Below are positions 5,189 through 29,563 of a stretch of DNA of 64,000 nt, one piece after another (the first letter of the stretch is position 1; each line of letters starts with the position of its first letter). Position numbers and translations under genes: made by a program. Below the pieces are notes generated by a model. It made no database searches and had not been told where the DNA came from. It saw nothing but the letters and a program-made list of their open reading frames with translations. The stretch comes from a bacterium (GTDB taxonomy: Bacteria; Zhuqueibacterota; Zhuqueibacteria; Oceanimicrobiales; Oceanimicrobiaceae): positions 780-64,779 of the forward strand of contig JBHHXT010000006.1 in NCBI GenBank assembly GCA_046757165.1. Direction: 5' to 3'.

Positions 5189-5264
5189 ACTCTGTTCTCG
5201 ATGCGTTAGACCGATTCTCCCTCACGATGAGGAGAGAGTCAGTCGTGTCCATGCGGCAGGGCCA

Positions 5265-7480: not shown

Positions 7481-7599
7481 ATTGATGGTTCTTGCTGTTA
7501 TCATGATTGGATGACGACAAAAGTTTTGCATTCTTGCGGAAATGAATGATCGTTTGGTGAAGAGGCTTAACCAGAGACTACTTTATGAGGAGGCTTTGC

Positions 7600-8850: not shown

Positions 8851-8990
8851 GTGTTGCAGTACAGCAACTGGCTCGCTGCTCTACCGGAGTTTAGAGATTT
8901 CACAGGTGCCGCGCCCACAATTGGCTCAACTCGACATTGCGCGGCACCGGCATCATTGTAGAAAAGGGACTTTTAACAAGAGGTGCTGAT

Positions 8991-11017: not shown

Positions 11018-12157
11018 ATGTCAAGTCAAGAGAGATTTACGGTCATCATCGATGCCGTACGGAGCCCGATTGGTGTCAAGAACGGTCGACTTGTGGGTAT
11101 CCGGGCGGACGAGCTATCGGCCCAGGTGGTCCGTGCTCTGCTGAAAAGAAATCCACAGTTCCCGAAGGAGAAGACCGAAGACGTGGTCTGGGGGTGTGCC
11201 TTTCCGGAAGCGACACAGGGCATGCTGGTCGCGCGCGGCGTGGGCTTGTTGGCCGGCCTGGCGGAGACCACCGCGGCCAAAGTCGTCAACCGCTTTTGTG
11301 GCTCATCGATGGAGGCGGCGCACCAGCTCGATCGCGCGATCCTGGCCGGGGACATCGAAGCGGGGATTGCCGGTGGGGTAGAGGACATGTTCTCCATCCC
11401 TATGGGCGGTTTCAACCCGAGTTTTCATCCAAAACTGGCGGAGATGAAGTTTTACATGGGGATGGGTGAGACCGCTGAAAATTTGGCCAGGGATGGTGCC
11501 ATCACTCGAGAAGCCCAGGAAAAATTTTCCGTGGCCTCCCATCAAAAAGCACTTGCTGCCTGGAAAGAAGGCCGTTTCGCGAAGGAAGTCGCGGCGATTC
11601 AAACGAACGGCGCCACCGTCGAGCAAGACGAGGGGCCGCGCGAGCCGAATTTCGAGAAGATTCAGTCCCTCAAGCCCGCCTTTCTGAAAGATGGCACCGT
11701 CACAGCGGCCACGAGCAGTCCGTTTTCGGTTGGAGCTGCCGCCCTGCTTCTGGTCAGCAACAGCCTGGCCCTGGAACTGGATTTGAAACCGCGTGCCAGG
11801 ATCGTCGCTCGCGCGGTCGCCGGTGTCGACTGGACACGGATGGGCATGGGGCCCATTCCCGCGACCGAGAAGGTGCTGCAAAAAGCCAACATGACCCTTG
11901 ACGACATCGACGTGATCGAGCTCAACGAAGCGTTCGCTGCCCAGTCGCTCTATGTGATTCAGAAAGCAGGCTGGTCCCCGGAGAAAGTCAATCTCAACGG
12001 CGGCGCCATCGCGCTGGGTCATCCACTTGGCTGCTCTGGCGCACGTATTCTGACAACCCTGCTCAATGTGATGGAACAGCAGAAGGCCAGGACCGGCCTG
12101 GCGACCATGTGCATCGGCGGGGGTCAGGGCATTGCAACCATCATCGAACGCATGTAA
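11018..12157 (+). CDS. fadA: 3-ketoacyl-CoA thiolase (acetyl-CoA acyltransferase).
   Basis: The thiolase motifs are NRFCGSSMEA with the active Cys, and NLNGGAIALGHPLGCSGARI with GGGQG near the C-terminus. Confidence 0.85.
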   Translation: MSSQERFTVIIDAVRSPIGVKNGRLVGIRADELSAQVVRALLKRNPQFPKEKTEDVVWGCAFPEATQGMLVARGVGLLAGLAETTAAKVVNRFCGSSMEAAHQLDRAILAGDIEAGIAGGVEDMFSIPMGGFNPSFHPKLAEMKFYMGMGETAENLARDGAITREAQEKFSVASHQKALAAWKEGRFAKEVAAIQTNGATVEQDEGPREPNFEKIQSLKPAFLKDGTVTAATSSPFSVGAAALLLVSNSLALELDLKPRARIVARAVAGVDWTRMGMGPIPATEKVLQKANMTLDDIDVIELNEAFAAQSLYVIQKAGWSPEKVNLNGGAIALGHPLGCSGARILTTLLNVMEQQKARTGLATMCIGGGQGIATIIERM

Positions 12158-12167
12158 GGAGGACGCC

Positions 12168-14513
12168 ATGACAGACAAGATCGAAAAAGTTGCGGTGCTC
12201 GGTGCGGGCGTAATGGGCGCCCAGCTCGCCGCGCACCTCTCGAACGCCGGCATTCCGTCCTTGTTGTTCGATATTTCCCAGGAGGTGGCTGAGCAGGGTA
12301 AACGTGCGGCGCTGACCCTCAAGCCGGCCCCATTCTACAATCCAAAAACCGCTGAGCTGATCGAGCCTTGTAACTACGACGACCACCTGGACAAACTCAA
12401 AGAAGTCGATTGGGTGCTGGAAGCGGTGGTCGAGCGTTTGGATATCAAGCAGTCGCTGTTCAACCGCATCGCGCCGCATTTGAAGAAGGGGGCGATTGTC
12501 TCGTCGAACACTTCTGGCCTCTCCATTAAGAACATGATGGACGGCATGCCGGCGGCGTTTCAGCAGCGCTTTCTGGTGACGCACTTCTTCAATCCGCCGC
12601 GCTATATGCGGCTCCTTGAAATCGTCTCCGGTGAAAAAACCGATCCGGCGCGGGTTGCAAAGTTGGCTGAATTCTGCGAAAACGTGCTGGGCAAAGGCAT
12701 CGTCACCGCCAAAGACACGCCCAACTTCATCGCCAACCGCATCGGTACCTTTGGCATGATGCTGTCCCTGAAGCTGACGCGTGAGATGAACTTGACAGTG
12801 GAGGAAGTCGACAAGATCACGGGCACACTGGTTGGCCGTCCGAAAAGCGCAACCTACCGCACCGCCGACGTTGTCGGACTCGATACGTTGGCACACGTGG
12901 CCCGGAATACATACGAATATTGCCCGGACGATGAGCAGCGGGAGATCTTTCTGGTGCCGGAGTTCTTCCAACAGATGCTGGACAAGGGCCTGCTCGGCCA
13001 AAAAGTCAAGAAGGGATTCTACCAAAAGGTCGACAAAGAGATTCTTTCCCTTGACTTAGACACCCTCGAGTATTCGCCCCAAAAAACCGTCCGCCTTGAT
13101 GGGTATCGCGTCGCCAAGGGATTTCAGACCACGCCCGAGCGCATCAAAGCGCTTGCCTTCAGCGACGATCCTGCTGGCAAATATTTCTGGGAACTGCTGG
13201 CCACCACGCTTATCTACACCGCAAACCGTCTCCCGGAAATCGCAGACGACATCGTCAATGTCGACAATGCGATGAAATGGGGATTCGGCTGGGAGCTGGG
13301 ACCGTTTGAAACCTGGGATGCGATTGGCCTGCAAAAGTCGGTTGAGCGCATGCAGCGGGAAGGAAAGAAAGTTCCAGCCTGGATTCTGGAGATGGTACAA
13401 AGTGGTGAGCCCGCTTTCTACACCAGCCAGAAGGGCCAAAAGACCTTTCTTGATCTTACCACCAAAAAACCAGCAGATTTTCCGCGCAGCGCCAAAAGCG
13501 TGGACCTGGCCTCTTTGAAACAGGCCGGCAAGGAAGTCAGCAAGAACTGGTGCGCCAGCCTGGTGGACCTCGGCGACGGCGTCCTGTGTCTGGAGTTTCA
13601 CAGCGCCCTGCAGCCGGTCATGAATCCAATCGACGCCTCGATCATCGATATGATGCAGGCCGCGCTGCAAACCGTGTCGGAGAAAGGCTTCAAAGGTCTG
13701 GTCGTTGGGCATCAGGGTCAAAATTTTTCCGCCGGCGCGAATCTGGCGCTCATCCTCGAGCTTTGCGAGGCGAAAGATTGGCCGCGCATCGAGCAGACCA
13801 GCAAGACCTTTCAGGATATCACCCAGGCGTTGAAATTCGCGCAATTTCCGGTGGTGTCGGCGCCGTTCAATCTGTGTCTTGGCGGTGGCTACGAGGCCGC
13901 GGCCTTCGCCGACCGGATTGTGGCCTCTGCCGAATTGTACTGTGGTCTCGTGGAGGTGGGGGTCGGAATCATTCCGGGCGCAGGCGGCAATCTGCGTGTG
14001 CTGCTCAACAACAGGCAGAAGATGGAAAAGGCGAGAACCGGCCCCTTTCCGGTCGTGCAGAAGGCGTTTGAAACCATCGGTTTCGCCCGCGTGTCCACCT
14101 CGGCGAAGGAAGCTGTCCGGCTGGGCTACCTGAGGCGTTCAGACCAGATCGTTCTGAACGCGCAGCATTTGCTTTTTGAGGCCAAACAGGCGGTGCTCGA
14201 GCTGGCCGGGAGTTACGCCCCACCGGCGTGCCATGAAGATCTCATTCTGCCCGGCGAGGGAGGCAGGCTGGCCATCGAAAGCTCGCTCTCCGATTTCGTC
14301 AAGGCGGGTCAGATCTCAGAACACGACCGGTTGATCGGCAGCAAACTGGCGCGGGTTCTGACCGGCGGCGACGTGGCCTCCCTGACCAGACCCGTCGACG
14401 AGCAGACGATCCTCGATCTGGAACGAGAAGCTTTCGTCAGCCTGTGCGGTGAGAAGCGCTCGCAAGAACGGATGAAGTACATGCTGGAAAAGGGCAAGCC
14501 GCTGCGGAATTAG
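12168..14513 (+). CDS. fadN: Bifunctional 3-hydroxyacyl-CoA dehydrogenase / enoyl-CoA hydratase with the FadN (Bacillus YusL) domain order: N-terminal dehydrogenase, C-terminal crotonase.
   Basis: An AAGGAGG ribosome-binding site lies 6 nt before the ATG at 12168, which is downstream of the table start. A Rossmann motif VAVLGAGVMGAQLA sits at the N-terminus and a crotonase fold in the C-terminal third. Total length is about 781 aa, and fadA ends 11 nt upstream. Confidence 0.8.
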   Translation: MTDKIEKVAVLGAGVMGAQLAAHLSNAGIPSLLFDISQEVAEQGKRAALTLKPAPFYNPKTAELIEPCNYDDHLDKLKEVDWVLEAVVERLDIKQSLFNRIAPHLKKGAIVSSNTSGLSIKNMMDGMPAAFQQRFLVTHFFNPPRYMRLLEIVSGEKTDPARVAKLAEFCENVLGKGIVTAKDTPNFIANRIGTFGMMLSLKLTREMNLTVEEVDKITGTLVGRPKSATYRTADVVGLDTLAHVARNTYEYCPDDEQREIFLVPEFFQQMLDKGLLGQKVKKGFYQKVDKEILSLDLDTLEYSPQKTVRLDGYRVAKGFQTTPERIKALAFSDDPAGKYFWELLATTLIYTANRLPEIADDIVNVDNAMKWGFGWELGPFETWDAIGLQKSVERMQREGKKVPAWILEMVQSGEPAFYTSQKGQKTFLDLTTKKPADFPRSAKSVDLASLKQAGKEVSKNWCASLVDLGDGVLCLEFHSALQPVMNPIDASIIDMMQAALQTVSEKGFKGLVVGHQGQNFSAGANLALILELCEAKDWPRIEQTSKTFQDITQALKFAQFPVVSAPFNLCLGGGYEAAAFADRIVASAELYCGLVEVGVGIIPGAGGNLRVLLNNRQKMEKARTGPFPVVQKAFETIGFARVSTSAKEAVRLGYLRRSDQIVLNAQHLLFEAKQAVLELAGSYAPPACHEDLILPGEGGRLAIESSLSDFVKAGQISEHDRLIGSKLARVLTGGDVASLTRPVDEQTILDLEREAFVSLCGEKRSQERMKYMLEKGKPLRN

Positions 14514-15127: not shown

Positions 15128-15883
15128 ATGAAAAACAGGCTTGCAACGTACCTTTTTGCGCTCAACGTTCTTCTTCTTGGCGCACCCCCTTCAAACGCGC
15201 AAATCCCGGACAAATTCGAGAACCTGCAAGTTCTCCCCAAAGATCTCAGCAAGCAGGAGCTCATGGCCCATATGCGGGCCTTCGCCAGAGGGTTGGGCGT
15301 GCGCTGCCAACACTGCCATGTCGGCGAGGAAGGGCAGCCGCTGTCGACCTTTGACTTCGCCTCTGACGAAAAACCGGTGAAGGAAACCGCTCGGATTATG
15401 ATGAAGATGCGACAGGAAATCAACCAAACCTTTATGACGCGCTTGGGCAAAGAGAAAGCGCAGACACTGCAAGTCAACTGTGTCACCTGTCACCACGGAC
15501 AGTCGAGACCACAAACGCTCGAGCAAGTGCTAACAGGTGTTTTAGATGCCGATGGTATCGACGCAGCAACCGAGAAGTATCGCGAGCTGCGAAAGCAGAA
15601 TTATGGTGGCTTTGCCTTTGATTTTGGCGAGTTCACCCTGCTGAGGCTTGCAAGCGAGCTGTCAGAAAAAAACCTCGAGGCGGCCATCGCCATGCTGAGA
15701 CTCAACCTGGAATTCTATCCGGAATCCGCTTTCACCCATTACTCCCTCGGCGAAGGGTACGCCCAAAAGGGAGACAAGGCGCTGGCCATCGAGCATCTGC
15801 AAAAAGCGTTGGCCATTCAACCGCAGAATCGACGGGCGAAAAGAAGACTGGACCAGCTTTCCAAGAGCTCAGACACGCATTGA
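15128..15883 (+). CDS. Secreted diheme c-type cytochrome with C-terminal TPR-like region.
   Basis: It has a signal peptide (MKNRLATYLFALNVLLLGAPPSNA) and two CxxCH heme-binding motifs (CQHCH, CVTCHH). The C-terminal 90 aa are TPR-like (AFTHYSLGEGYAQKGDKALAIEHLQKALAIQP). Confidence 0.7.
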   Translation: MKNRLATYLFALNVLLLGAPPSNAQIPDKFENLQVLPKDLSKQELMAHMRAFARGLGVRCQHCHVGEEGQPLSTFDFASDEKPVKETARIMMKMRQEINQTFMTRLGKEKAQTLQVNCVTCHHGQSRPQTLEQVLTGVLDADGIDAATEKYRELRKQNYGGFAFDFGEFTLLRLASELSEKNLEAAIAMLRLNLEFYPESAFTHYSLGEGYAQKGDKALAIEHLQKALAIQPQNRRAKRRLDQLSKSSDTH

Positions 15884-16017: not shown

Positions 16018-17268
16018 ATGTATGTCCTGGTCCTCAATTGTGGTTCATCCTCGGTCAAATTCCAGATCATCGAGACCGATCTCGATTTGATCGAGAAGAA
16101 TTCAGACCGCCGCCTGGCGCACGGCGTGTTGGAACGCATCGGCAGCCACTCGCTGATCACCTTGCAGGCGGAAGGGGCGCCCAAGAGCAAGAAAGATGCG
16201 CCTCTGCGAGACCACCGTGCCGCCATAGACATCATTCTGCGCTGGATCATCTCACCCGAGTCAAAGATAGAACAGATTCGATCCTTGTCCGACATTCATG
16301 CGGTCGGACACCGGGTCGTGCACGGCGGTGAGAAATTCAGTAAATCGGTCAGAATCGATTCTGACATCATTGCGGAGATCGAAGAGTGCATTGAGCTGGC
16401 GCCGCTGCACAATCCTGCCAACATCAAAGGCATCAAGGCGGTGACGGAGCTCCTGGGCGAAGGGGTGCCGCAGGTCGCGGTTTTCGATACCGCCTTTCAC
16501 TCCACAATGCCGGCGACTTCCTACCTTTACGGATTGCCCTATCCGCTTTATCGTCGCTACAAGATTCGAAGGTATGGTTTCCACGGCACCTCGCACCGCT
16601 ACATCGCTTACCGTTACCGGCAAGTACACGGTTTGAACCAAAACCAGGTCAACATCATCTCCCTGCACCTCGGCAACGGCTGCTCCGCGTGCGCCATCAA
16701 AGGCGGGTCCTCTGTTGACACCTCGATGGGTTTCACGCCTCTGGATGGTCTGCTGATGGGCACCCGCTCGGGCGATGTGGACCCGTCGATACTGGAGTTT
16801 CTTTATCATAAAGAAGGCTTGACGTTCAACGAAATCGACACGCTTCTGAACAAACGGTCCGGTTTGCTCGGAATCTCAGGCTTGACCAATGACATGCGTG
16901 AACTGTTGGAAGAGGAGGCGGAGAACCAGGACCGTCGAGCCAAACTGGCCATCGATATCTTTTGCAAGAGAATCAGAAAATATGTCGCCGCGTACTATGT
17001 GGAGATGAAAGGCAAGGTGGAAGCTGTGGTTTTCACCGGCGGAATCGGGGAGAATGCGCCCACTGTGCGCGAGCGTGTTTGCCAGGGGCTGGAGAGCATC
17101 GGCTTGCACCTGGATAAGAAAAGAAATGCCACCGTACATTCCGGCGCGAGTGGCACGATCTCCAGGGACGGCAGCAGGTTACAAGCATGCGTTTTCCCGA
17201 CCGATGAAGAGCTGCTCATCGCGCGGGACACCGTACGTGTCGTCAAAAACGCGCCGCGGAGATGGTGA
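16018..17268 (+). CDS. ackA: Acetate kinase.
   Basis: It has the N-terminal VLVLNCGSSSVKFQI motif, HLGNGCSA, and a size and fold consistent with acetate/propionate kinases. Confidence 0.9.
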   Translation: MYVLVLNCGSSSVKFQIIETDLDLIEKNSDRRLAHGVLERIGSHSLITLQAEGAPKSKKDAPLRDHRAAIDIILRWIISPESKIEQIRSLSDIHAVGHRVVHGGEKFSKSVRIDSDIIAEIEECIELAPLHNPANIKGIKAVTELLGEGVPQVAVFDTAFHSTMPATSYLYGLPYPLYRRYKIRRYGFHGTSHRYIAYRYRQVHGLNQNQVNIISLHLGNGCSACAIKGGSSVDTSMGFTPLDGLLMGTRSGDVDPSILEFLYHKEGLTFNEIDTLLNKRSGLLGISGLTNDMRELLEEEAENQDRRAKLAIDIFCKRIRKYVAAYYVEMKGKVEAVVFTGGIGENAPTVRERVCQGLESIGLHLDKKRNATVHSGASGTISRDGSRLQACVFPTDEELLIARDTVRVVKNAPRRW

Positions 17269-17283
17269 GCCAGCGAGTTTATC

Positions 17284-17417
17284 CACCGAAATTCACCGAA
17301 ACCACCGAATCCCACCGAGAGTATCTAACGATCAGTGAATAATCTGTCATACTTTGACCTTTGCGGCTTCACCGCGTTAGAAATAATCCAGGTCAAAAAT
17401 AATCGGTCAACTCGGTG
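17284..17417. repeat. Array of four CACCGA(A/G) heptamers (17284-17319, period about 11 bp) with an inverted TCGGT/CTCGGTGG partner at 17403-17417, placed exactly between the convergent ackA and the giant minus-strand gene.
   Basis: The forward array reads ccaccgaaattcaccgaaaccaccgaatcccaccgag, and the partner aatcggtcaactcggtgga lies 85 bp downstream. The same heptamer family forms a near-perfect palindrome at 30925-30993. Confidence 0.55.
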
Positions 17418-17430
17418 GATAAGAATGACG

Positions 17431-20400
17431 CTAGATGATCCCCTCCAATTCCGCTTTTGCCGGTTCCTGTTCTTCACTCTCGAGCCGTTTCATCATATTG
17501 CCATAGCGATGGTCGATCTTGAAGCCGAATTTGTAAAAGTACTGAGGTCGCAGGTAGCCAACCGTGACGATTTCTACCCCCTGACTTGTCAATCGGTTGA
17601 AGAACTCGTTCAGCAGTCCATCGCTGATTTCTTTTCTGCGGTGATGCTCCTGCACCACGATTTTCTCCAGGTGCACATGCTTGGCATCCACATGATGGTA
17701 GAACATGCCCGCAACAACGCGCCCACGGGGATTGAGCACGACGAGATACTGATGCTCAGGTCGAAACTCCACCGGTAGATTTGCCAGCGTGAAAAGTTTG
17801 TGTAGTTTTGCGATTTCCTTCGGATTGGCTGGTTTGCGCACCGCCAGTTGATTGCCATCATTGTCCTCGATAAACACGACCAGGGAGGTCTTCTCCGCGC
17901 CCTCAGAAGTGAGGGACACGAACTCTGCTTCGTGTTTGACGCCAAGGTGGGGGTAGGAAAGCCGGGTGAGAAAAAACTGCTCCTCGTGCGAAAAGTGGTT
18001 GCGGCCACGTAACTCGGCCAAATGTTCCGGCAGTTCATAGGTTGCGACTTCCTTACGTCTAACCCTGCGTAAAATCTGATTCAAACCATCGATGAGCGTG
18101 GGATCGCTGTGGGAAAAAACCGTGTCGCGAAAGAACTGGATTCGGGCACCGGGGTATTTTTTTTCGATCTGGGCCAGGATGTAAGTCGTGTATAAGTCAC
18201 GCAAGGTCTGCATACGGGCTTGCCGTGTTGCAGCCGGATTCAAGACATACCAGCGTTTGAAGCGGGCGATGGCAAAGTGGAGCCGTTCTGGCTTGTAGCC
18301 TTTCTCTCGCACAGAAGTGATGAATTCACTCAAGTTTTTCACCAGCTCGTCCGTCTCGCCGGGTTCATCGTTTTGCTGGTCGCTCTCGATGGCTTGCTCG
18401 AAAAGCTGCACCCCTTCCTTCTCCCCCAGGATCTCGAGAAAAGCAGAAAAGATGACATGCCAGCTACATCGACCTTTTAGATGGGTGTACGTCGACTCGG
18501 CCGAAAGAATGAAGTGTCTTCGAAACGCCAGGATCATTTCAAAGAGAGTTGCAAAGGGTTTGCGCGACGAAATCGAAACGATACGGAAGCCGACCAGGAA
18601 ATCATGCGACGGCACGATGACGTTTGCCGGCGTCGGATCAGCGATTTCCAACGTTCGGCCCGTTCGATTCCAGAAATCGATGTAGGCGCTCAGGCCGTTC
18701 CAGACAAACGAGGGCCAGAGTTGTTGCATCCGCTCCTCGCCGTCTTTGGCGGCTTGCCGGTCCAGGCGTCGCAGATACCTGGCGACCGTCTCACCGGGGA
18801 TGAACTCTTCGGTCCACAATCCATATTCTGGCCAATAGCCTCCAAACTCCTCGACTAACGGAGTCCTGTCGTCGGTTGCCCCGGCGCAGATCAGCCAGTT
18901 GATCTCGGAGATGATTTCGTCGTCGGAGAGCGATTTGTTGAGATTGATGGCGACGTCAAATGCGCCGTAGCTGTGCGTTTGCACCGACACCCGGTAGACC
19001 GCTTTTCCGTGCAAGGCACCCAGGAAGCTGATGTAGATTCCCTGTTGCGGGATTTCATGCAGCGGAATAAGCCGGCCGCCGGAGAAGATGAAGATGGCCT
19101 CCCTGAGCAAGGGACCCTTCTGAATCGCCTCGGCCATGATTTCGCGGTCACTCGAGGGGATGGTTTCTTCGAAGAACAACACATCCTTCCAGCGAAACTC
19201 CTCACGGGTTTCAGGGTCGATGGCGATCTGTAAATTGTCGCCCAACCAGTTGCGGAACCCCTTTCGCAAGGTTTGCAGGCAGCGCTCGGCTTGGGTCTTG
19301 ATGGCGCCGTCGGGGGCAAAAATGCGCCACCTCACCAGCTCCGCCCGGATGGACTTATGCGCGACCGGATGCTGGACGCCGTAGGCTGTGATAAATCGCA
19401 ACATCGCTTTGATCGGAAATTTGGACGCCTTCTCCTGGCCGTTTTGCACGCTTTGCAAGCACGCTGCCAGGTAGTCCAGAAGAGTGTTGAGTTGATCTTT
19501 TGAGAAGTCGTGGCGGCTCAGTCTGGCGATTGTGTCCCGGTCGAGGATGGCATGTTTCGCCAGCAGAAACCGCTCCAGAATGGGCCTGAGCAAGTTTCTC
19601 TTTTCATTGAGCAAAAGCACCTGGAATGCTCGCCTTTTGATGGCTGTGTTGCTCGAGGCACAGGAGCGCATCAGGACCCCTTTGGCCAGGCGAAGTGTTT
19701 TTTCATTTTTGTCAGAGATGACCGCTTGCAGATAATCGATGGCCTTGAAGGCAGCCTTTTCCTGCCAGGTTTGCAGCACGAACGCGGCGACGTGAACACC
19801 CTGAACACTTTTGTATTTTGCTTTCATGATCTTGCCAAAGTCCTCCGCCACTCGTCTCTGCAGAGGTGCCGGCTTGCTTGCCAACTGCAGTTGAATCGTC
19901 GAACTGTGGGAAACGTTGCCCGTGGCGACGCGGAAGATTTTGTGCCCGACGAAGTGGCCTAGTTGCAGGTTTCCCAGCCACAACGTTGGATCCCGCACAA
20001 TCATGCCCAGGTCCAAATAATTCTCCTCCGTCTCATAGACGAAACTGCCGATTTGCATGCGACAGCATCCACTCCTTTTCAGTCTCCTGATATGCAATTT
20101 TGTCTTTGTGGGCGTCAGGACAATGGCGGAGCCTTGCACTTTCAGGTCATTCGAAGTCAGACCCTGTGCCCGCAGGAACCAGGACGGGATGCGAAAGTCA
20201 AAGCCGTCGACCGTGAGCGAAACATAATCCCGGGCGTACATCTCCTCGATGACAGGGGCAAAATTCTGCTCGATGGCTTTACGCTTGTACGTGCTTTTGA
20301 CGGTCAGCTCTCCCCGGTCGGCCTCGAAGTCCCGGTCGATGATAGTGAAATTGACGATTCTTTCGTAGGGCGCCAGGAACTGGTTGATGGAAACAATGAT

Positions 20401-22230
20401 AGAGCCGAAGAACTCCCGCAGCTTCTCATGGCTGAGCTGGCGAAGATTCACTTGTTCATAGTCATAGTTCGGAAAGAGCAGCAGCGTGTTGTACTCCCGG
20501 CGGTCGCCAACCAGGAACACACGCCTGACCGCTTCAAAATCGTTGAACAGGTTTTCGATTTTTTGTGGGGAGATGGTTTCCCCCTGTACGCTCTTGTAAA
20601 TCTCTTTCTTCCTATCGATGATCTCGAAAAATCCCTCGCCGTCCTGGCGGAAGATATCCCCGGTGTGCAGCCATCCGTCCTCCATCCCGGTGGTTTCATC
20701 GTCCAGGTAGCCCATCATGACATAGGGACCTCGAATGAGCATTTCACCATCCTGCGCCAGCTTGATATCGATGCCGGGCAGGGCTTTCCCCACGGAGTTG
20801 GTGCGGTAATCGAAAGGTGGGGTCATGGTGATGCCGCCGGTCGCTTCGGTCATGCCAAATCCGCTCATGATTTCGACCCCGCATTCCTGAAAGAATCGAA
20901 AGATGTCGGGGTCGAGGTAGCCGGCGGCGGACAGCCCCCATTTCAAGCACCCCCCGGTCATCTCTTGCACGACCGCGCGCACCCCGGCAAGCGGTGCATG
21001 TTCAACGTCGATCTTCTCACCGATCTTTTCACGCAATTGAATCCATTTCTTGGGAATGCTGATAAAGACAGTGGGCCGGGTCAATTGCATGTTCTCGACG
21101 ATGGTTTCGATCTTGGTGTTTTCGATGAAGCTGTAGGTGGCGCCCCAGAAGAGAGACCCGACCATCTCGAAGTATCTGCCGAACGTGTGAAACAGGGGCA
21201 GGTAGCAAAGAAAGCGGTCCTGGTCTCCGATTTGTGGCAGCGCGATGGCACGGGCGAAACGCTTGCTGATGATGTTGCGGTGCGAGAACATGATACCCTT
21301 CGGGGCCTCGGTGGTGCCTGAGGTGTACATGACGGTCGCAAGATCATCCAGTTTGACCCCGGCCATGGCCTCGATGACCGTGCTGTCTGGCAACGTGATG
21401 CCGCGCAACAAGAATTCACCAAATGAGATGATTTGGTCATCAGCGGGAATCTGAGTCGTGTCCATGGCGACCGTCAGGTGGACCTCCTTTGTTTGCCTCC
21501 AAATCTTCAGCAGCTCGGCCAGGCGGCGGTCTCGAGACACGAAGATGACTCGGACCCGCGAGTGATTGATGATAAATCTGATGGTTTGCGGCGTGGCATT
21601 GACCGGGATAGGCACATTGACGATGCCGCAGATCAGGCACGCCAGGTCGATGCATACCATGTCCAGGGTGTTATCCGACAGGATGGCCACGCGGCAGGGC
21701 CCGGAGGGCTGCGCAAGCTCGGCTGTGATGTCCAGAAGACTTTTGGCAATGGCGAAAACCCGGCTTTGCAGCTCCCGCCAGGAGTGGTTCATTGCCCTGC
21801 GCCCGGACAGGGTCTGGAAGATGGATTTTTCGCCGTATTCCTGCACCCGCTGCATCAACAGCGCGCCCGTGGTGAAATTGCTCGCATCCACGATGGCCAG
21901 CAGCAACCGGAACCAGTCCTCTGACAGATTGTTCTCCTGAACTTTTTGCAGGACACAGCTCCGGCGTGCCGCGTTCAGGAAATTGTGGAGTATCCTTACG
22001 AGATGGGGCTGTTGGGCCGGGCCGCACGCTTTCAGACTCTTAAGCAGGCGTTCACCCAGTTGGCAAAGAAGCGGAATCTCGAGGTGCGCCATATTCGTCG
22101 AAGATATCGCGCCATCTGTTAGCAGGTCGAGCAGCTGCTGGACGCGGCCGTTTTTGTGCCGGCCGTTTCCGGAATGCAGGGCCTGGATGACCTCGTCAAC
22201 CTGTTGCAAGACCTCTTTGTCAGTGAGCAT
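17431..22230 (-). CDS. Giant multidomain protein of about 1599 aa. It has an N-terminal region of about 180 aa of unknown function, an AMP-dependent synthetase/ligase (acyl-CoA synthetase-like) domain, about 900 aa of uncharacterised sequence, and a C-terminal GNAT-like acyltransferase fold.
   Basis: An AAGGA ribosome-binding site lies 6 nt before the ATG at 22230 (MLTDKEVLQQ), whereas the table start at 22389 falls in an AT-rich region. The AMP-binding motifs are MYTSGTTEAPKGIMFSHRN and GYLDDETTGMEDGWLHTGDI...IIDRKKEIYK. The C-terminal 110 aa (HQYLVVLNPRGRVVAGMFYHH...EISDGLLNEFFNRLTSQGVEIVTVGY...FYKFGF) resemble a GNAT fold. The central region has no motif I can name, and the forward ORF 19963..21321 is an antisense shadow. 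Confidence 0.7.
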   Translation of the reverse strand: MLTDKEVLQQVDEVIQALHSGNGRHKNGRVQQLLDLLTDGAISSTNMAHLEIPLLCQLGERLLKSLKACGPAQQPHLVRILHNFLNAARRSCVLQKVQENNLSEDWFRLLLAIVDASNFTTGALLMQRVQEYGEKSIFQTLSGRRAMNHSWRELQSRVFAIAKSLLDITAELAQPSGPCRVAILSDNTLDMVCIDLACLICGIVNVPIPVNATPQTIRFIINHSRVRVIFVSRDRRLAELLKIWRQTKEVHLTVAMDTTQIPADDQIISFGEFLLRGITLPDSTVIEAMAGVKLDDLATVMYTSGTTEAPKGIMFSHRNIISKRFARAIALPQIGDQDRFLCYLPLFHTFGRYFEMVGSLFWGATYSFIENTKIETIVENMQLTRPTVFISIPKKWIQLREKIGEKIDVEHAPLAGVRAVVQEMTGGCLKWGLSAAGYLDPDIFRFFQECGVEIMSGFGMTEATGGITMTPPFDYRTNSVGKALPGIDIKLAQDGEMLIRGPYVMMGYLDDETTGMEDGWLHTGDIFRQDGEGFFEIIDRKKEIYKSVQGETISPQKIENLFNDFEAVRRVFLVGDRREYNTLLLFPNYDYEQVNLRQLSHEKLREFFGSIIVSINQFLAPYERIVNFTIIDRDFEADRGELTVKSTYKRKAIEQNFAPVIEEMYARDYVSLTVDGFDFRIPSWFLRAQGLTSNDLKVQGSAIVLTPTKTKLHIRRLKRSGCCRMQIGSFVYETEENYLDLGMIVRDPTLWLGNLQLGHFVGHKIFRVATGNVSHSSTIQLQLASKPAPLQRRVAEDFGKIMKAKYKSVQGVHVAAFVLQTWQEKAAFKAIDYLQAVISDKNEKTLRLAKGVLMRSCASSNTAIKRRAFQVLLLNEKRNLLRPILERFLLAKHAILDRDTIARLSRHDFSKDQLNTLLDYLAACLQSVQNGQEKASKFPIKAMLRFITAYGVQHPVAHKSIRAELVRWRIFAPDGAIKTQAERCLQTLRKGFRNWLGDNLQIAIDPETREEFRWKDVLFFEETIPSSDREIMAEAIQKGPLLREAIFIFSGGRLIPLHEIPQQGIYISFLGALHGKAVYRVSVQTHSYGAFDVAINLNKSLSDDEIISEINWLICAGATDDRTPLVEEFGGYWPEYGLWTEEFIPGETVARYLRRLDRQAAKDGEERMQQLWPSFVWNGLSAYIDFWNRTGRTLEIADPTPANVIVPSHDFLVGFRIVSISSRKPFATLFEMILAFRRHFILSAESTYTHLKGRCSWHVIFSAFLEILGEKEGVQLFEQAIESDQQNDEPGETDELVKNLSEFITSVREKGYKPERLHFAIARFKRWYVLNPAATRQARMQTLRDLYTTYILAQIEKKYPGARIQFFRDTVFSHSDPTLIDGLNQILRRVRRKEVATYELPEHLAELRGRNHFSHEEQFFLTRLSYPHLGVKHEAEFVSLTSEGAEKTSLVVFIEDNDGNQLAVRKPANPKEIAKLHKLFTLANLPVEFRPEHQYLVVLNPRGRVVAGMFYHHVDAKHVHLEKIVVQEHHRRKEISDGLLNEFFNRLTSQGVEIVTVGYLRPQYFYKFGFKIDHRYGNMMKRLESEEQEPAKAELEGII

Positions 22231-22459
22231 AACGTCCTTTTCAAAGATGACGTGACGGATAGAAATTAAACAGACCTGGCTATAAATACAAACAAAATTT
22301 TTTGTCATCTGACTCGGAAAGAACAGATGGAACGAAAAATGGTCAAACCCGATGCCGGGAACGCACATGTTTTTGCTTGCAATTCGCACAAATAAATCTT
22401 ATCATTTTGCTTTGAGTTCGATTTGCACTGGTTCGATGAAAGGAGCTAAATAGAGTGCC

Positions 22460-23395
22460 ATGCCAAATGCTGAAGTTAGAAATGTGATCATCATCGGTTC
22501 CGGGCCAGCCGGATACACGGCGGCAACTTACAACGCGCGCGCCATGTTGCAGCCGCTGGTTTTTGCGGGGCCAGAGCCCGGGGGACAGCTAACGTTAACT
22601 ACAGATGTCGAGAACTACCCGGGGTTTCCAACCGGTGTCATGGGACCGGACTTGATGAACGCCATGCGCGAGCAAGCCGAGCGTTTCGGCGCCGAGATTG
22701 TCTGGGATGCAGTGACACGGGTGGATTTCTCTAAACGGCCGTTTTCTGTGTTCGTGGGCGAGCAGGAGTACCTGGGCAGGACCGTAATCATCGCCTCGGG
22801 CGCCTCCGCCAGACTTCTGGGCCTTGAATCAGAGAAGAAGCTCATGGGCCACGGCGTCTCAACCTGCGCTGTTTGTGATGGCGCCTTTTATAAAGGCAAA
22901 GACGTCATCGTGGTCGGCGGCGGCGATACCGCTCTGGAAGACTCGACCTTCTTGACCCGGTTTGCGAAACGGGTCGAGGTCGTGCACCGCCGGGACCAAC
23001 TGCGCGCCTCGAAGATCATGCAGGAGCGCGCGTTCAAGAACGAGAAGTTGCATTTTGTCTGGGATACGGTCATCGACGAGATTCACGACGTGGAGAAGCG
23101 GAGCGTGACCGGAGTTACCTTGAGAAACGTCAAATCAGGAGAAACAATTCAGCGCGAGGTCGACGGCGTCTTCGTTGCCATCGGCCACAAGCCGAACACC
23201 GAAATTTTTCATGGCCAGATTGAGTTGGATGATGTCGGCTATATCGTGCCGAAGCAGCGCACGATGACCAGGGTCGATGGCGTATTTGCTGCCGGCGATG
23301 TCGTGGACCACTACTATCGGCAGGCGATTACCGCGGCCGGGATGGGATGCCAGGCGGCGATTGACGCAGAAAGATGGCTCGAGGCGCAGGAATGA
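22460..23395 (+). CDS. trxB: Thioredoxin-disulfide reductase.
   Basis: It contains GSGPAGYTAA for FAD binding, the CAVCDG redox-active disulfide motif, and a GGGDTA NADPH-binding motif. Confidence 0.9.
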   Translation: MPNAEVRNVIIIGSGPAGYTAATYNARAMLQPLVFAGPEPGGQLTLTTDVENYPGFPTGVMGPDLMNAMREQAERFGAEIVWDAVTRVDFSKRPFSVFVGEQEYLGRTVIIASGASARLLGLESEKKLMGHGVSTCAVCDGAFYKGKDVIVVGGGDTALEDSTFLTRFAKRVEVVHRRDQLRASKIMQERAFKNEKLHFVWDTVIDEIHDVEKRSVTGVTLRNVKSGETIQREVDGVFVAIGHKPNTEIFHGQIELDDVGYIVPKQRTMTRVDGVFAAGDVVDHYYRQAITAAGMGCQAAIDAERWLEAQE

Positions 23396-25360: not shown

Positions 25361-28069
25361 ATGGCTCACATTTATCAAGAGATCCTTGATTCCATTCAAA
25401 AGCCCGTGCGCTACCTGGGCAACGAATGGAATGTCATTCGCAAATCGAAAGAGGAAGCGCGCAAGCGCGTCGTGCTCTGCTTTCCGGACACGTATGAGAT
25501 CGGTATGTCCCATCTGGGACTGCGTATTCTCTACGCTATCCTGAACAAGCGTGACGATACCGCTGCTGAGCGCTGCTACACCCCCTGGATCGACATGGAG
25601 CAGAAGCTGCGGCAGAAAGGATGGCCGCTGGTCTCCCTGGAAACCCAGACGCCGCTCAATGAATTCGATGTGGTAGGGTTTTCCCTGCAGTATGAACTGG
25701 AGTACACCAATATTCTCACCATGCTCGATCTGGGTGGAATTCCTCTGCATTCGAGAGAGCGCGCGGCGAAGGATCCCCTCGTCATCGGCGGCGGACCGTG
25801 TGCGTTTAGCCCCGAGCCAATTGTCGATTATTTCGATTGTATCCTGATCGGCGATGGTGAAGAGGCCTTCCCGAACGTGGTCGACCGGTTCATTGAATTA
25901 CGGGATGGCGACTTGCCACGTGCGGAAATCCTGGGTCACCTGGCGCAGTGTGACGGCATTTATGTGCCTTCGCTGTATGAAACCCGCATCGACTCCGAGA
26001 CAGGGTTCGAGGTCGTCACGGGGAGCACGAACGCCCCCTATCCGGTGCGGCGGACTTACATCGAGGACATCAATCAGTATCCGTTTCCCGCCGACATTCT
26101 TGTGCCGCATGGCGACATTGTGCACGACCGGGTTTCCGTTGAGATCGCGCGCGGGTGCACTGAAGGGTGCCGTTTCTGTCAGGCCGGGACGATTTACCGG
26201 CCTGTGCGCGAACGCAAGCCGGAGGAAATCATCAAGAGTGTTCTCAAAAGTCTTGCAAAAACCGGCTTTGACCAGGCCTCCCTGACCTCGTTGTCGACCG
26301 CGGATTTCAGTTGCATCGGCCCCCTGGCACAGAAGCTGAGCGATGAATTGCAGAAACGGAAAACCGCCATGACTGTCTCTTCCATGCGCGTCTATGGCAT
26401 GACTGATGACCTCGGCGTGAGCCTGTCAAAAGTCCGGCGCTCGGGATTTACCATTGCACCTGAGGCGGGCAGCCAGCGCATGCGCGACGTCATCAACAAA
26501 GGGATCACCGAAGAGGTGATCCTGCATGGCGCGCGCACGGCGTTTCAAAACGGGTGGAACCATGTCAAACTCTACTTCATGATAGGCCTGCCCACCGAGA
26601 CCGGAGATGACTTGAAAGCGATTGTCGACCTGGGAGTCAAGATTCTCAGGCTGGCCGAGCAGGAGCACGGCAAGAAAGCTCAGGTGACGATCAGCATCTC
26701 TTCGCACATTCCCAAGCCCCATGCGCCGTTCCAGTGGCTCGGGGTAGAAGACCAGGCGTCCTTGCGGGAGAAGCAGAAATACTTGCTGCGCCTGATTCGG
26801 CCACACAAACGGCTGCGCCTGAAATGGCACGATGTCGAGCACACGTGGCTGGAGGCGATTTTTTCGCGTGGCGACCGCCGGCTCAACAAGGCGGTGGAGC
26901 TGGCCTACCGCCGTGGCTGCCGCTTCGACGCCTGGACCGACCAGGTGGATGTTGGGGCCTGGCGCCAGGTGTTTGATGATTTGAACATCGATACGGAAAT
27001 ATGGATGCGGGACATCCCCCTTTATGCCGCGCTGCCGTGGGACCACCTGGATTCGCTGGTGAAAAAGGAGTGGCTCGTTCGCGAGCTGAAGCGGGCCATG
27101 AAAGGTCGCTTCTCCCCCGCTTGCGAGAAACCGTTCAAAAGAAAAGATGAGCACGACCGCACAGATCTGGGCCGGCCAACGGAAAGCGACAAACTGGTTT
27201 GCTATCACTGCGGTCTGGAGTGCGACCTGGACGCGATCCGGCGTGAGCGCATCGAAAGCTGGAGAAGTCTGGAGAACGGAATCGAAGTCAAAGGCGAAGT
27301 GCCGCAGGAGGGGGAGTCGAGTCCGTACCCGCAGCGCGTGACGCGGTACCGGGCCGCCTACACCAAGCTGGGTGAGTGCCGCTTCCTTTCTGCCCTGGAT
27401 TCGACGCGTACCTTCACACGCGCTTTCAACCGCTCCATGGTGCCGCTCAGATTCAGTCAAGGGTTTCATCCGGCGCCGGTGATTTCATTTGGTCCTGCAC
27501 TCGCGGTTGGCATGGAGAGCGCTGAGGAGTTCCTCGATTTCGAAACCGTTGCAGACATCCCTGAACAGGAGCTGCGCGCCAGGCTCAACGCGCAGTTGCC
27601 CCGCGGGTTGGAATTCACGGCACTGGCGAAAATCGATGCCAGAGCGAAATCCTTATTCGAAGTGATTGATTTCGCTGAATACTCCGTCCTTGTGGACCTG
27701 GCAGGGCTGGAGGAGTACCTCGAGACGCGCGCCAACGGTCGTGCTCACGCGACTTCGGTCGCTTTACACGCAGCTTTCGCTAACAAGCTTTTGGAGCGCG
27801 ACAGCATTGAAGTTAAAAGGACGAGCAAGGGTCGGCTCCGGATTCAGGACGTCAGGCCCCTCATCCGCAAGCTCGAAGTGCTCAATTCAGAGGTCCCCCT
27901 GCGGCTTCGTTTGCTCCTTGGTTCGGGCAGGAACGGGAGCGTGCGCCCGGAAATCGTCCTGAAAGAGATGTACGGCGAGGACGTGCCCCTGGAGATGTTC
28001 CGCATCCGGCGCGAACGGTTGCTGGTGGAAAAGGCTGGAACTTTCTATTCGCCACTGGAGTTGGACTAA
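25361..28069 (+). CDS. B12-binding-domain radical SAM protein fused to a DUF2344-like C-terminal domain (TIGR03960 plus TIGR03936 type).
   Basis: The radical SAM motif is CTEGCRFCQAG, preceded by a cobalamin-binding-like N-terminal domain. The C-terminal 300 aa (RFLSALDSTRTFTRAFNRSMVPLRFSQGFHP) resemble the radical-SAM-associated DUF2344 family, which is often encoded separately. Confidence 0.65.
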   Translation: MAHIYQEILDSIQKPVRYLGNEWNVIRKSKEEARKRVVLCFPDTYEIGMSHLGLRILYAILNKRDDTAAERCYTPWIDMEQKLRQKGWPLVSLETQTPLNEFDVVGFSLQYELEYTNILTMLDLGGIPLHSRERAAKDPLVIGGGPCAFSPEPIVDYFDCILIGDGEEAFPNVVDRFIELRDGDLPRAEILGHLAQCDGIYVPSLYETRIDSETGFEVVTGSTNAPYPVRRTYIEDINQYPFPADILVPHGDIVHDRVSVEIARGCTEGCRFCQAGTIYRPVRERKPEEIIKSVLKSLAKTGFDQASLTSLSTADFSCIGPLAQKLSDELQKRKTAMTVSSMRVYGMTDDLGVSLSKVRRSGFTIAPEAGSQRMRDVINKGITEEVILHGARTAFQNGWNHVKLYFMIGLPTETGDDLKAIVDLGVKILRLAEQEHGKKAQVTISISSHIPKPHAPFQWLGVEDQASLREKQKYLLRLIRPHKRLRLKWHDVEHTWLEAIFSRGDRRLNKAVELAYRRGCRFDAWTDQVDVGAWRQVFDDLNIDTEIWMRDIPLYAALPWDHLDSLVKKEWLVRELKRAMKGRFSPACEKPFKRKDEHDRTDLGRPTESDKLVCYHCGLECDLDAIRRERIESWRSLENGIEVKGEVPQEGESSPYPQRVTRYRAAYTKLGECRFLSALDSTRTFTRAFNRSMVPLRFSQGFHPAPVISFGPALAVGMESAEEFLDFETVADIPEQELRARLNAQLPRGLEFTALAKIDARAKSLFEVIDFAEYSVLVDLAGLEEYLETRANGRAHATSVALHAAFANKLLERDSIEVKRTSKGRLRIQDVRPLIRKLEVLNSEVPLRLRLLLGSGRNGSVRPEIVLKEMYGEDVPLEMFRIRRERLLVEKAGTFYSPLELD

Positions 28070-28189: not shown

Positions 28190-29563
28190 ATGCTGCTTTG
28201 CCGTACTATGGAGACTACCGAAATCAAGCATTCGAACTCGAGAGTCGGGAGCAAAGACTCACGGCTCAAGAAATATCGCGCCTCCTTCTATACCCTCGGG
28301 TGCCGGCTGAACCAGGCTGAGACTTCGCTCATCAGCAACACGTTCAAAGAAAAGGGGTACGAGATCGTTGCCTACGGCGAGCCCACCGATGTCTGTGTCA
28401 TAAACACCTGCACGGTCACCGAGCAGGCAGACGCCAAGTGCCGCCAGTTGGTGCGACAGGTGCTCAAGCGCTCCCCCGATGCATTTGTGGCGGTGGTCGG
28501 CTGTTACGCGCAAATGGATTCCGGAATCCTCGCAGAGATCGACGGCGTCGATCTCATTGTTGGCACCGAGGAGAAGCTCCAGGTCTCGTCGTTTGTTGAT
28601 GTTCCGCACAAGCTGCCTGAGCCGATCGTGCGCAACCGCAAGATTCGGAGCACGCCCTTTACAATCAGCTCGGTCGGCAATTATGAGCATGCCACCCGCG
28701 CGAACCTGAAGGTGCAGGACGGCTGTGATTTCATGTGCACCTTTTGCATCATTCCGTTTGCCCGGGGCCGCGCTCGCAGTCGGACTTTCCGGGACATTCA
28801 ACGCGAGGCCCGGCAACTGGTCGAGCGTGGTCACAAGGAGTTGGTGCTGAGCGGCGTCAATATCGGCACGTATGAATTCGAAGGCAAGACCCTGCTCGAT
28901 GTCATCAAGATGCTGGAGCGTATCGAGGGACTGGTGCGCATTCGAATCAGCTCAATCGAGCCCACCACGATTCCCGATGCGCTCGTCAACCACATGGCGG
29001 AATCTGAAAAGCTCTGTCACCACTTTCACATCCCGGTCCAACACGGTGATGATGCTGTTCTGCAAAAGATGCGGCGGCTGTACACGGTCGGGGAGTATGT
29101 TGAGTTTCTGGAGAGGGTACAGAAACGCATTCCAGACGTTTGCCTTGGCACGGACGTCATGGTTGGCTTTCCCGGCGAGGGCGTGGCAGAGTTTGAAACC
29201 ACCCACCAGCTCTTGCGCGATTTGCCGTTTGCTTACTTTCACGTCTTTTCTTTTTCCGAGCGCGGTGGAACCCCTGCGGTGCGAATGGCGGACAAGGTAG
29301 AAGCGCGAGTGAAGAAAGAACGGAGTCAGGCGTTACGCATGCTCTCCAATCAAAAGAGACGAGAATTCATGCAAGGACAAATTGGCAGATCGGTGCGCGT
29401 GCTCATGGAAGAACGGTATGAAGATGGCTTGTACCAGGGGTTTACAGACAACTACATCAAAGTGGCCGTGCAGACAGAACGCGACCTGGAAAATCAGATG
29501 GTCGAGGTGGAGCTGCGGCAAGTCAGCGAGCAGCCTCTCGCACTCGGCGTCATCAAGGCTTAG
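28190..29563 (+). CDS. mtaB: MiaB-like tRNA methylthiotransferase (MtaB/RimO clade).
   Basis: It has the MTTase N-domain (FYTLGCRLNQAETS), the radical SAM motif CDFMCTFCIIP and a TRAM C-terminus. The start is ambiguous (ATG at 28190 or 28208) and neither has a clear ribosome-binding site. Confidence 0.7.
   Translation: MLLCRTMETTEIKHSNSRVGSKDSRLKKYRASFYTLGCRLNQAETSLISNTFKEKGYEIVAYGEPTDVCVINTCTVTEQADAKCRQLVRQVLKRSPDAFVAVVGCYAQMDSGILAEIDGVDLIVGTEEKLQVSSFVDVPHKLPEPIVRNRKIRSTPFTISSVGNYEHATRANLKVQDGCDFMCTFCIIPFARGRARSRTFRDIQREARQLVERGHKELVLSGVNIGTYEFEGKTLLDVIKMLERIEGLVRIRISSIEPTTIPDALVNHMAESEKLCHHFHIPVQHGDDAVLQKMRRLYTVGEYVEFLERVQKRIPDVCLGTDVMVGFPGEGVAEFETTHQLLRDLPFAYFHVFSFSERGGTPAVRMADKVEARVKKERSQALRMLSNQKRREFMQGQIGRSVRVLMEERYEDGLYQGFTDNYIKVAVQTERDLENQMVEVELRQVSEQPLALGVIKA

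Follow-up and report, generated by a model that had tools for sequence, protein, structure and literature searches.

The window analysed here, i.e. the whole stretch of 64,000 nucleotides to which all coordinates refer, carries at 17431..22230 on its minus strand a gene for a large fusion protein of 1,599 amino acids. The chain is predicted to be composed of a 118 aa extension followed by an AMP-forming acyl-CoA ligase of the ANL type, a small beta-domain, an ARM/HEAT-like alpha-solenoid, a protein-kinase-like module and a C-terminal Gcn5-like domain of the GNAT family. Residue numbers are those of the 1,599 aa protein, and all segments described for it lie with the gene on the minus strand. 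The domains are individually of known kinds and what is new is their combination. No description of a fusion of ANL, kinase-like and GNAT domains was found in the literature, and in the databases homologues are named just 'GNAT family N-acetyltransferase' or 'AMP-binding protein'.

The reading frame is open from 22389 down to 17431 (1,652 codons counted from a GTG). Within it the complete coding sequence of 1,599 codons plus stop (17431..22230) starts with the ATG at 22230 (MLTDKEV...), which is preceded at a distance of 4 nt by a Shine-Dalgarno-like GAAAAGGA (22235..22242), named so for its resemblance to the consensus only. M1 is at least 90% conserved and this gene model is the best one, because 57 homologues align from the same methionine; the database gene call P0001 (1,645 aa) is the identical protein and probably over-extended at its 5' end. 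Homologues span 92-100% of the length at 41-63% identity, therefore neither a frame shift nor a chimera is present in the open reading frame (ORF), and mean column identity is 55% across the whole protein. More than 120 full-length homologues were found, each of 1,550-1,640 aa. An earlier first-pass annotation, made from the letters of the sequence, had proposed a real gene of about 1600 aa at these coordinates and had named a frame shift as one way in which the proposal could fail; the gene is real and its ORF intact. That assembly or gene calling fused separate genes is excluded, with a probability of practically nil, as the same 1,500-1,640 aa architecture occurs on hundreds of independent contigs, closed chromosomes of metagenome-assembled genomes (MAGs) included. 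The G+C content of the gene equals that of the flanking sequence, and scans for promoters and terminators across 17200-22500 gave counts not above those of shuffled sequence. Membership in a defence system was considered and rejected, since the protein has no match at E<=0.01 among the anti-phage models of PADLOC.

The N-terminal extension (residues 1-118, 21877..22230) is weakly conserved, with L85, R89 and W106 kept, and has no Pfam, NCBIfam or PDB match. It is followed by the ANL ligase domain (residues 119-667, 20230..21876), recognised by Pfam as PF00501 (AMP-binding, residues 130-509, E 4e-63, 213.9 bits vs a cutoff of 29.9) and PF23562 (AMP-binding_C_3, residues 548-667, E 1.6e-12, 48.3 bits vs a cutoff of 20.8). 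The AMP-binding signature quoted in the first-pass annotation is found at residues 302, 519 and 539, and the adenylating core is genuine. The top NCBIfam models for this part are long-chain fatty-acid-CoA ligase and FadD11, both below cutoff, and no named equivalog (FadD, FadD11, MenE and others) scores above 204 bits, the cutoffs being 476-1349. Among solved structures it comes closest to the carboxylic acid reductase (CAR) adenylation domain (E 4e-30).

The core ANL motifs are present, i.e. A3 (T303-K311), A5 (E462), A7 (D525) and A8 (R540). Conservation was checked separately in 57 close homologues, in 40 sequences that take in a divergent subfamily of 26-32% identity, and in the sequences of 61 GTDB species genomes. 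In all three sets, down to 26% identity, K311, E462, D525, R540, K645 and R650 show no or almost no variation, and on these alignments the ligase is for this reason judged to be under catalytic constraint. The C-terminal A10 loop requires comment. In the HMMER alignment 'ELTVK645-S-T647-Y-K-R650' stands opposite 'LLTGI-R-K-L-A-R' of CAR (5mso), and Thr647, which is Thr or Ser family-wide, occupies the column of the lysine in 'GIRK', which we take to be the A10 lysine of CAR. Two residues upstream of T647, K645 is conserved in at least 99% of the sequences, and R650 is essentially invariant; from this conservation we infer that K645 may be a displaced A10 lysine. Regarding the intactness of the ligase motifs and the presence of the catalytic lysine, which the first-pass annotation had left to be checked, motifs A3, A5, A7 and A8 are thus intact, but the canonical A10 column is Thr647, with a conserved lysine at K645. 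With FadD11/ACSL and the adenylation domain of CAR the domain shares the best NCBIfam and PDB matches, the AMP-binding_C_3-type subdomain and the intact A3, A5, A7 and A8; it differs in scores far below the equivalog cutoffs, in the putative A10 lysine shifted by two residues, and in carrying the N-terminal extension and ~930 additional C-terminal residues.

At the other end of the chain lies the GNAT domain (residues ~1431-1585, 17476..17940). The Pfam match is marginal (PF00583, residues 1488-1570, 21.6 bits vs a cutoff of 20.7), and the fold is borne out by Foldseek, with target-normalised template modelling (TM) scores of 0.64-0.69 against GNAT structures (3d8p, 4pv6, 5jph), the mycobacterial protein acyltransferase 4orf (MsPat fold) and archaeal Ard1 being among the structures matched. 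A profile of residues 1428-1599, built from both subfamilies and searched against the PDB, finds as its best match the GCN5 of Tetrahymena (tGCN5; E 8.4e-12, 48 bits), some six orders of magnitude ahead of the next unrelated GNAT (~2e-6); the matches include human KAT2A, PCAF and yeast Gcn5 as well. The assignment of a GNAT-like C-terminus in the first-pass annotation, which would have fallen had this region not folded as a GNAT, is in this way upheld by the AlphaFold2 model, by Foldseek and by the profile. The 'Q-V-R-G-Y-G' loop of GCN5 is in register with R1531-x-x-G1534-x-G/A/S; across the family this coenzyme A (CoA) pyrophosphate loop (GNAT motif A, canonically Q/R-x-x-G-x-G/A) reads R/K/Q-x-x-G-x-G/A/S, and the glycine at 1534 is found in 52/57 and 36/40 sequences. 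As far as profile similarity can tell, the domain is Gcn5-like, of the protein-lysine acetyltransferase type. Unlike Gcn5/PCAF, with which it shares the best profile match and the CoA loop in register, it has an N-terminal part of three strands and one helix in place of beta1-alpha1-alpha2, it has no bromodomain beside it, and it belongs to a bacterial family.

The stretch between ligase and GNAT had been described as about 900 aa of unknown sequence, and at the sequence level this is true: for the central ~800 aa a search at E<=1 matched Pfam and NCBIfam models in the ANL and GNAT parts only, so that Pfam has no family in the unnamed regions, and a family profile covering residues 1030-1445 found nothing in the PDB at E<=10. 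AlphaFold2 with the family alignment predicts a folded region, with a mean pLDDT (predicted local distance difference test) of 86 and a pTM (predicted TM-score) of 0.76 for residues 640-1599, and 90 and 0.85, respectively, for residues 660-1040. In these models the ~900 aa resolve into three modules (pLDDT 86-90), namely the beta-domain, the ARM/HEAT-like solenoid and a protein-kinase-like fold. The beta-domain (residues ~669-770, 19921..20226) is predicted to be eight-stranded with a pLDDT of ~90; G728, Y732, G753 and N754 are invariant in it and a fold search of the PDB gave no significant match. The solenoid (residues ~790-1000, 19231..19863) has weak Foldseek matches (E 0.04-0.4) to the V-ATPase H subunit, importin-alpha, TOG domains, AP2 and symplekin. 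Beta-domain and solenoid together have no significant structural neighbour (best Foldseek E 0.036).

The third module (residues ~1040-1430, 17941..19113; AlphaFold2 pLDDT 86) is predicted to follow the secondary-structure order of a bilobal protein kinase, with beta1-3, alphaC, beta4-5 and a helical C-lobe. Foldseek matches it to the kinase domains of RET, Eph and FGFR (probability 1.0, E ~1e-4, TMt 0.40-0.48), and also, across 660-730 columns, to PI3K-gamma and Vps34, because there the order of helical domain followed by kinase domain is the same. In sequence the module resembles no kinase, as neither Pfam (E<=1) nor the PDB search with the 1030-1445 profile (E<=10) returned a hit for it. The VAIK lysine is absent, the VAxK lysine position being N1096. 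Because of the missing lysine and the missing sequence-level match the module is regarded as an atypical kinase or a pseudokinase. The first-pass annotation had guessed at a kinase-like or phosphotransferase fold from the motif VIVPSHDF; the motif does lie in the kinase-like fold, and so the guess holds for the fold but not for the VAIK lysine or for kinase similarity in sequence.

The main subfamily, to which the protein belongs, carries in the beta1-beta2 loop the motif 'G-x-x-H-G-K1076-S-V-Y-R1080'. K1076 sits where WNK kinases have their catalytic lysine, in the glycine loop, and WNK1 (motif GRGSFKTVYKG...VAWCEL, confirmed in PDB sequences) likewise has a non-lysine at VAxK. Glu1109 of alphaC is present in 57/57 main-subfamily sequences, and a catalytic-loop-like 'A-D1198-P-x-P-x-N1203' is followed by an invariant D1210. 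The module is thus like WNK in its glycine-loop lysine and its non-lysine at VAxK, and like PI3K-gamma and Vps34 in having a solenoid before the kinase fold; it is unlike them in that the likeness is limited to fold and motifs (TM 0.2-0.48), without sequence homology and with a different spacing of the DFG-like aspartate. The divergent full-length subfamily (P0200-P0266; ~1,530-1,550 aa, 26-32% identity, ANL motifs intact) has in 33/33 sequences jointly lost K1076, N1096, E1109 and D1198 and kept R1080, N1203 and D1210, and the GTDB set agrees. The two subfamilies constitute a natural pair of an active-like and a degenerate form of the module, and with this family the kinase-like fold gains a lineage in bacteria whose lysine is displaced in the manner of WNK.

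One explanation for these features is that the module is an active, WNK-like atypical kinase which phosphorylates isocitrate dehydrogenase (IDH) or citrate synthase in the manner of AceK, with ligase and GNAT providing the fatty-acid or acetyl-CoA input. The coherent set K1076, E1109, D/E1198, N/D1203 and D1210 is held entire by 51 of the ~57 main-subfamily sequences, this protein included, and the joint loss of K1076, E1109 and D1198 in the sister subfamily follows the usual pattern of decay from active kinase to pseudokinase; however, the whole of that subfamily retains the architecture without the three residues, and sequence-level similarity to kinases is absent. Genes for IDH and citrate synthase adjoin the gene both here and in the related locus L001, and L001 and L086 each have phosphatase genes of the PP2C/SpoIIE type downstream of it. 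These points have to be set against the presumed base D1198, which already varies within the main subfamily (45 D, 6 E, others; D in just 79%), and against the position of D1210, which lies just 7 residues past N1203, a spacing atypical for DFG, and which the model places probably in the beta7-beta8 turn and not at the DFG position. Because of the variable D1198, the atypical D1210 and the sister subfamily a conventional active kinase is doubted, and the explanation by a kinase acting on IDH or citrate synthase appears distinctly unlikely. We treat the module as a putative nucleotide- or ligand-binding (pseudo)kinase, and give real phosphotransfer by the main-subfamily form a chance of about one third.

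To define the distribution of the family a hidden Markov model of the kinase-like module was searched against 1.84 billion cluster representatives. It matched 350 proteins, 163 of these at E<=1e-30; complete matches are 1,473-1,710 aa long with the module near residues 980-1450. Apparent variants without a ligase (990 aa and 1,120-1,140 aa) were rejected, since their sequences begin midway in the AMP-binding profile, and these short matches are 5'-truncated gene calls. The kinase-like module is exclusive to this architecture and the fusion is obligatory. Among 185,579 GTDB species genomes 326 carry the module. The best 80 of these 326 consist entirely of MAGs and represent KSB1, Calditrichota, Gemmatimonadota, the Acidobacteriota (with Holophagae, Thermoanaerobaculia and their relatives) and a small number of further groups. 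The GTDB proteins nearest to that of the window are from KSB1 and Calditrichaceae (65-69% identity). One Acidobacteriota MAG (MFD09779.bin.2.172) shows two module loci on separate contigs (L064 and L076), which are either paralogues or a binning duplicate.

Upstream of ackA, whose position convergent with the fusion gene is as the first-pass annotation had it (16018-17268, plus strand; PF00871, E 4e-148), the window carries a series of genes identified with Pfam, all on the plus strand and heading towards the fusion gene: IDH (6284-7480), citrate synthase (7585-8850), acyl-CoA dehydrogenase (8937-10748), thiolase (11018-12157), a FadB-like protein (12132-14513) and a cytochrome c/TPR protein (15128-15883). 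No other ANL ligase is present in the 64 kb window. On the far side a divergent thioredoxin-reductase-like gene (22460..23395, plus strand) is found, the synteny of which is conserved solely in the KSB1-like clade.

For comparison ORFs were called in 68 loci and the neighbours within five ORFs were clustered. Citrate synthase is the commonest neighbour, found in 18 of the 68 loci and directly adjacent in 11. These loci come from KSB1, Gemmatimonadota and Acidobacteriota, and the citrate synthase gene may lie on either side of the fusion gene and on either strand. Acyl-CoA dehydrogenase, thiolase, FadB-like and AckA genes occur in four loci each, in the clade of the window, and further neighbours are malonyl-CoA decarboxylase (3 loci), a CoA-binding protein (5 loci) and acyl-CoA dehydrogenase with electron transfer flavoprotein. 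At least one acyl- or acetyl-CoA gene lies within five ORFs in 29/68 loci from several phyla. Multihaem cytochromes (16 loci) and thioredoxin reductase (9 loci) represent lineage-specific synteny, and only citrate synthase crosses phyla. No deacylase (sirtuin/HDAC), carrier-protein or lipid-biosynthesis genes were found among the Pfam-annotated neighbour clusters. The search for homologues and conserved neighbours suggested in the first-pass annotation thus yields citrate synthase as the commonest neighbour and none that is universal; a conserved operon partner was accordingly rejected across the 68 loci.

In bacteria, protein acyltransferases (KATs) have been sorted into five architectural types (PMC8556138). 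AMP-forming ligases and kinase-like folds are absent from all five. Regulatory domains fused N-terminally to the KAT are the rule, and it is an established regulatory pairing that a GNAT acetylates an ANL enzyme at its A10 lysine (PMC8556138). The type I enzyme Pat/PatZ of Salmonella and E. coli is a metabolic regulator of the acetyl-CoA node which targets ANL ligases (PMC8556138) and, as here, consists of a large domain related to acyl-CoA synthetases followed by a C-terminal GNAT. In Pat/PatZ, in distinction to the protein of the window, the large domain is NDP-forming and catalytically dead. The ANL domain of the present protein is AMP-forming and has its motifs intact, and it is separated from the GNAT by the ~750 aa that make up beta-domain, solenoid and kinase-like fold. 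The first-pass annotation had already set the arrangement apart from Pat, rightly so, as Pfam finds a domain of the AMP-forming type only and none of the NDP-forming type. The cAMP-regulated MsPat/MtPat and the pair AcuA-AcsA are comparable in that a GNAT, with a fused sensor or in complex with its ANL substrate, acylates the A10 lysine of the ligase; in these systems regulator and ligase are separate proteins and a cyclic-nucleotide domain does the sensing, while in the protein of the window ligase and GNAT share one chain and the role of sensor would fall to the kinase-like fold. Because both NDP-forming and cyclic-nucleotide domains are absent, the protein is not a member of the Pat or MsPat families. 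By analogy it would work most like a regulated protein acyltransferase of the Pat or MsPat type.

Our preferred reading, which is tentative and to which we give somewhat less than an even chance, is that the protein constitutes a self-contained regulator at the acyl-CoA/acetyl-CoA node, in which acyl-CoA made by the ligase feeds or controls the Gcn5-like protein acyltransferase. The ligase would convert a free (fatty) acid, ATP and CoA to acyl-CoA and could serve as the FadD for the adjacent beta-oxidation genes. The GNAT would use or sense this locally made acyl-CoA and acylate protein lysines. The likeliest target may be K645 in the A10 loop of the ligase itself, giving a product feedback in cis which would be analogous to the action in trans of Pat, AcuA and MsPat; alternative targets could be partner enzymes recruited by a scaffold of solenoid and kinase-like module, with citrate synthase as the obvious candidate. 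Solenoid and kinase-like module would in this mechanism act as scaffold and as nucleotide-sensing or allosteric element, the latter module being placed where cAMP-, ACT-, NADP- or NDP-synthetase-like domains sit in the known KAT types. In favour of this reading are the catalytic constraint on the ligase, the protein-KAT character of the GNAT, the known pairing of GNATs with ANL enzymes, the obligatory fusion, and the acyl- and acetyl-CoA genes nearby, with no second ANL ligase in the window. Substrate, acylation target and direction of coupling are all inferred in this proposal, next to the observed domain identities, residue conservation, exclusivity of the module and gene context.

Several observations weigh against a regulator of this kind. 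The canonical A10 lysine column is Thr/Ser and the equivalence of K645 is assumed. In the GNAT the column of the catalytic Glu122 of tGCN5, a further difference from Gcn5/PCAF, is His1520, and a conserved acidic residue D/E1522 (E1522 here, in beta4) lies two positions beyond it on the same strand. The CoA loop of this very protein reads R1531-R-K-E1534-I-S, with the first glycine replaced by glutamate (codon 17629-17631), and E, T, A, W or R is found at 1534 in seven KSB1/Calditrichota loci (this one, L006, L012, L017, L019, L066 and L069); the rest of the motif is kept in the seven and the other phyla retain Gly1534. Because of this replacement the activity of the GNAT is uncertain in the KSB1/Calditrichota clade, where the loss could mean a relaxed or altered binding of the acyl donor. 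Similarity to a GNAT cannot by itself separate protein from small-molecule acceptors. Finally, the gene neighbourhoods are variable and not operonic, and the neighbour counts are raw counts, so that they are a suggestive association and not proof.

The lost glycine of the CoA loop, together with the marginal Pfam score, may also be explained by an ordinary FadD-type ligase, the C-terminal 900 aa of which are purely structural, for oligomerisation or localisation, with the GNAT as a decaying remnant. This we consider improbable, since the protein is conserved over its full length, as seen in the column identity given above, the GNAT motifs are kept in four phyla and the architecture is obligatory.

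A biosynthetic coupling is a further alternative, in which the GNAT moves the acyl group activated by the ligase to a small-molecule amine (an amino acid, a polyamine or a lipid head group) to give an N-acyl amide, the central modules binding the acceptor. Both catalytic domains are conserved within one chain, as such a coupling would ask for, and Aas-like fusions of ligase and acyltransferase exist; NCBIfam models for acyl-[ACP]-phospholipid acyltransferase do match the protein, but in the ANL part only, and no PlsC-type PF01553 hit is found in it, in distinction to Aas. The GNAT is closest to the GCN5 type and not to N-acyl amino acid synthases or to aminoglycoside or polyamine GNATs, and ~750 aa of solenoid and kinase-like fold are typical of protein scaffolds. 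A single Gemmatimonadota locus has a PlsC-type acyltransferase and a transporter of the MFS family alongside, while lipid, transport and biosynthetic genes are not recurrent neighbours. We regard the biosynthetic coupling as unlikely. Activation and transfer of an acyl group in one polypeptide, to a protein, lipid or small-molecule acceptor, had been suggested in the first-pass annotation; both domains are real, but a protein acceptor is favoured over lipid or small-molecule synthesis because of the GCN5-like GNAT, the scaffold domains and the gene context.

If the regulator at the acyl-CoA/acetyl-CoA node is the correct reading, the family would represent a sixth KAT type, in which an acyl-CoA-making enzyme is hard-wired to a Gcn5-like acyltransferase via a scaffold and a (pseudo)kinase. 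Two ideas would become directly testable, i.e. local supply of acyl-CoA for protein acylation and feedback in cis on the ligase. The carriers belong to poorly studied phyla (KSB1, Calditrichota, Acidobacteriota, Gemmatimonadota). A more far-reaching version, and a long shot, is a single-chain signalling hub with three catalytic activities, in which the ligase, the kinase-like module as an active WNK-like kinase and the GNAT as a Gcn5-like acyltransferase for lysines control the entry to the tricarboxylic acid cycle. If true, citrate synthase and IDH would be phosphorylated and acylated in response to the supply of fatty acid or acetate, and the protein would be a bacterial counterpart of AceK plus Pat; its layout of solenoid, PI3K-like (pseudo)kinase and Gcn5 would parallel the eukaryotic pairing of Tra1/TRRAP with Gcn5 and also the way in which ACSS2 provides acetyltransferases locally with acetyl-CoA.

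Some features of the surrounding genes are recorded here. The phosphatase genes of the PP2C/SpoIIE type lie just downstream in the closest relatives, at 15719-20227 in L001 and at 15292-16596 in L086, with the architectures HATPase_c_2-SpoIIE-TPR and GAF-SpoIIE; they are relevant if the kinase-like module is active. In the Gemmatimonadota locus L002 (CP070722.1, 5102-7767) the PlsC-type acyltransferase and the MFS transporter divergently adjoin the gene, in an arrangement which recalls aas-lplT and was seen in this one genome. In the window, the FadB-like ORF begins within the thiolase ORF, whose last 26 nt the two have in common, and it has a reversed domain order, with the 3-hydroxyacyl-CoA dehydrogenase N-terminal (residues 19-298) and the enoyl-CoA hydratase C-terminal (residues 494-623). 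The cytochrome c/TPR protein (251 aa), with a cytochrome c region of the reaction-centre type and TPR repeats, is odd in its place between the beta-oxidation genes and ackA. Two ORFs on the plus strand near the start of the window (2498-4117, 539 aa, and 4436-5209, 257 aa) match nothing in Pfam at E<=1e-5, and the first 4 kb show a strongly negative AT skew of -0.22 to -0.29, unlike the remainder. On the other side of the fusion gene, at 25361-28069 on the plus strand, is a gene for a 902 aa radical SAM protein (Radical_SAM_N2, B12-binding, Radical_SAM and DUF2344), followed on the same strand by two tandem MiaB/RimO-like methylthiotransferase genes (28190-29563 and 29567-30880); this block is syntenic in L001 and L086.

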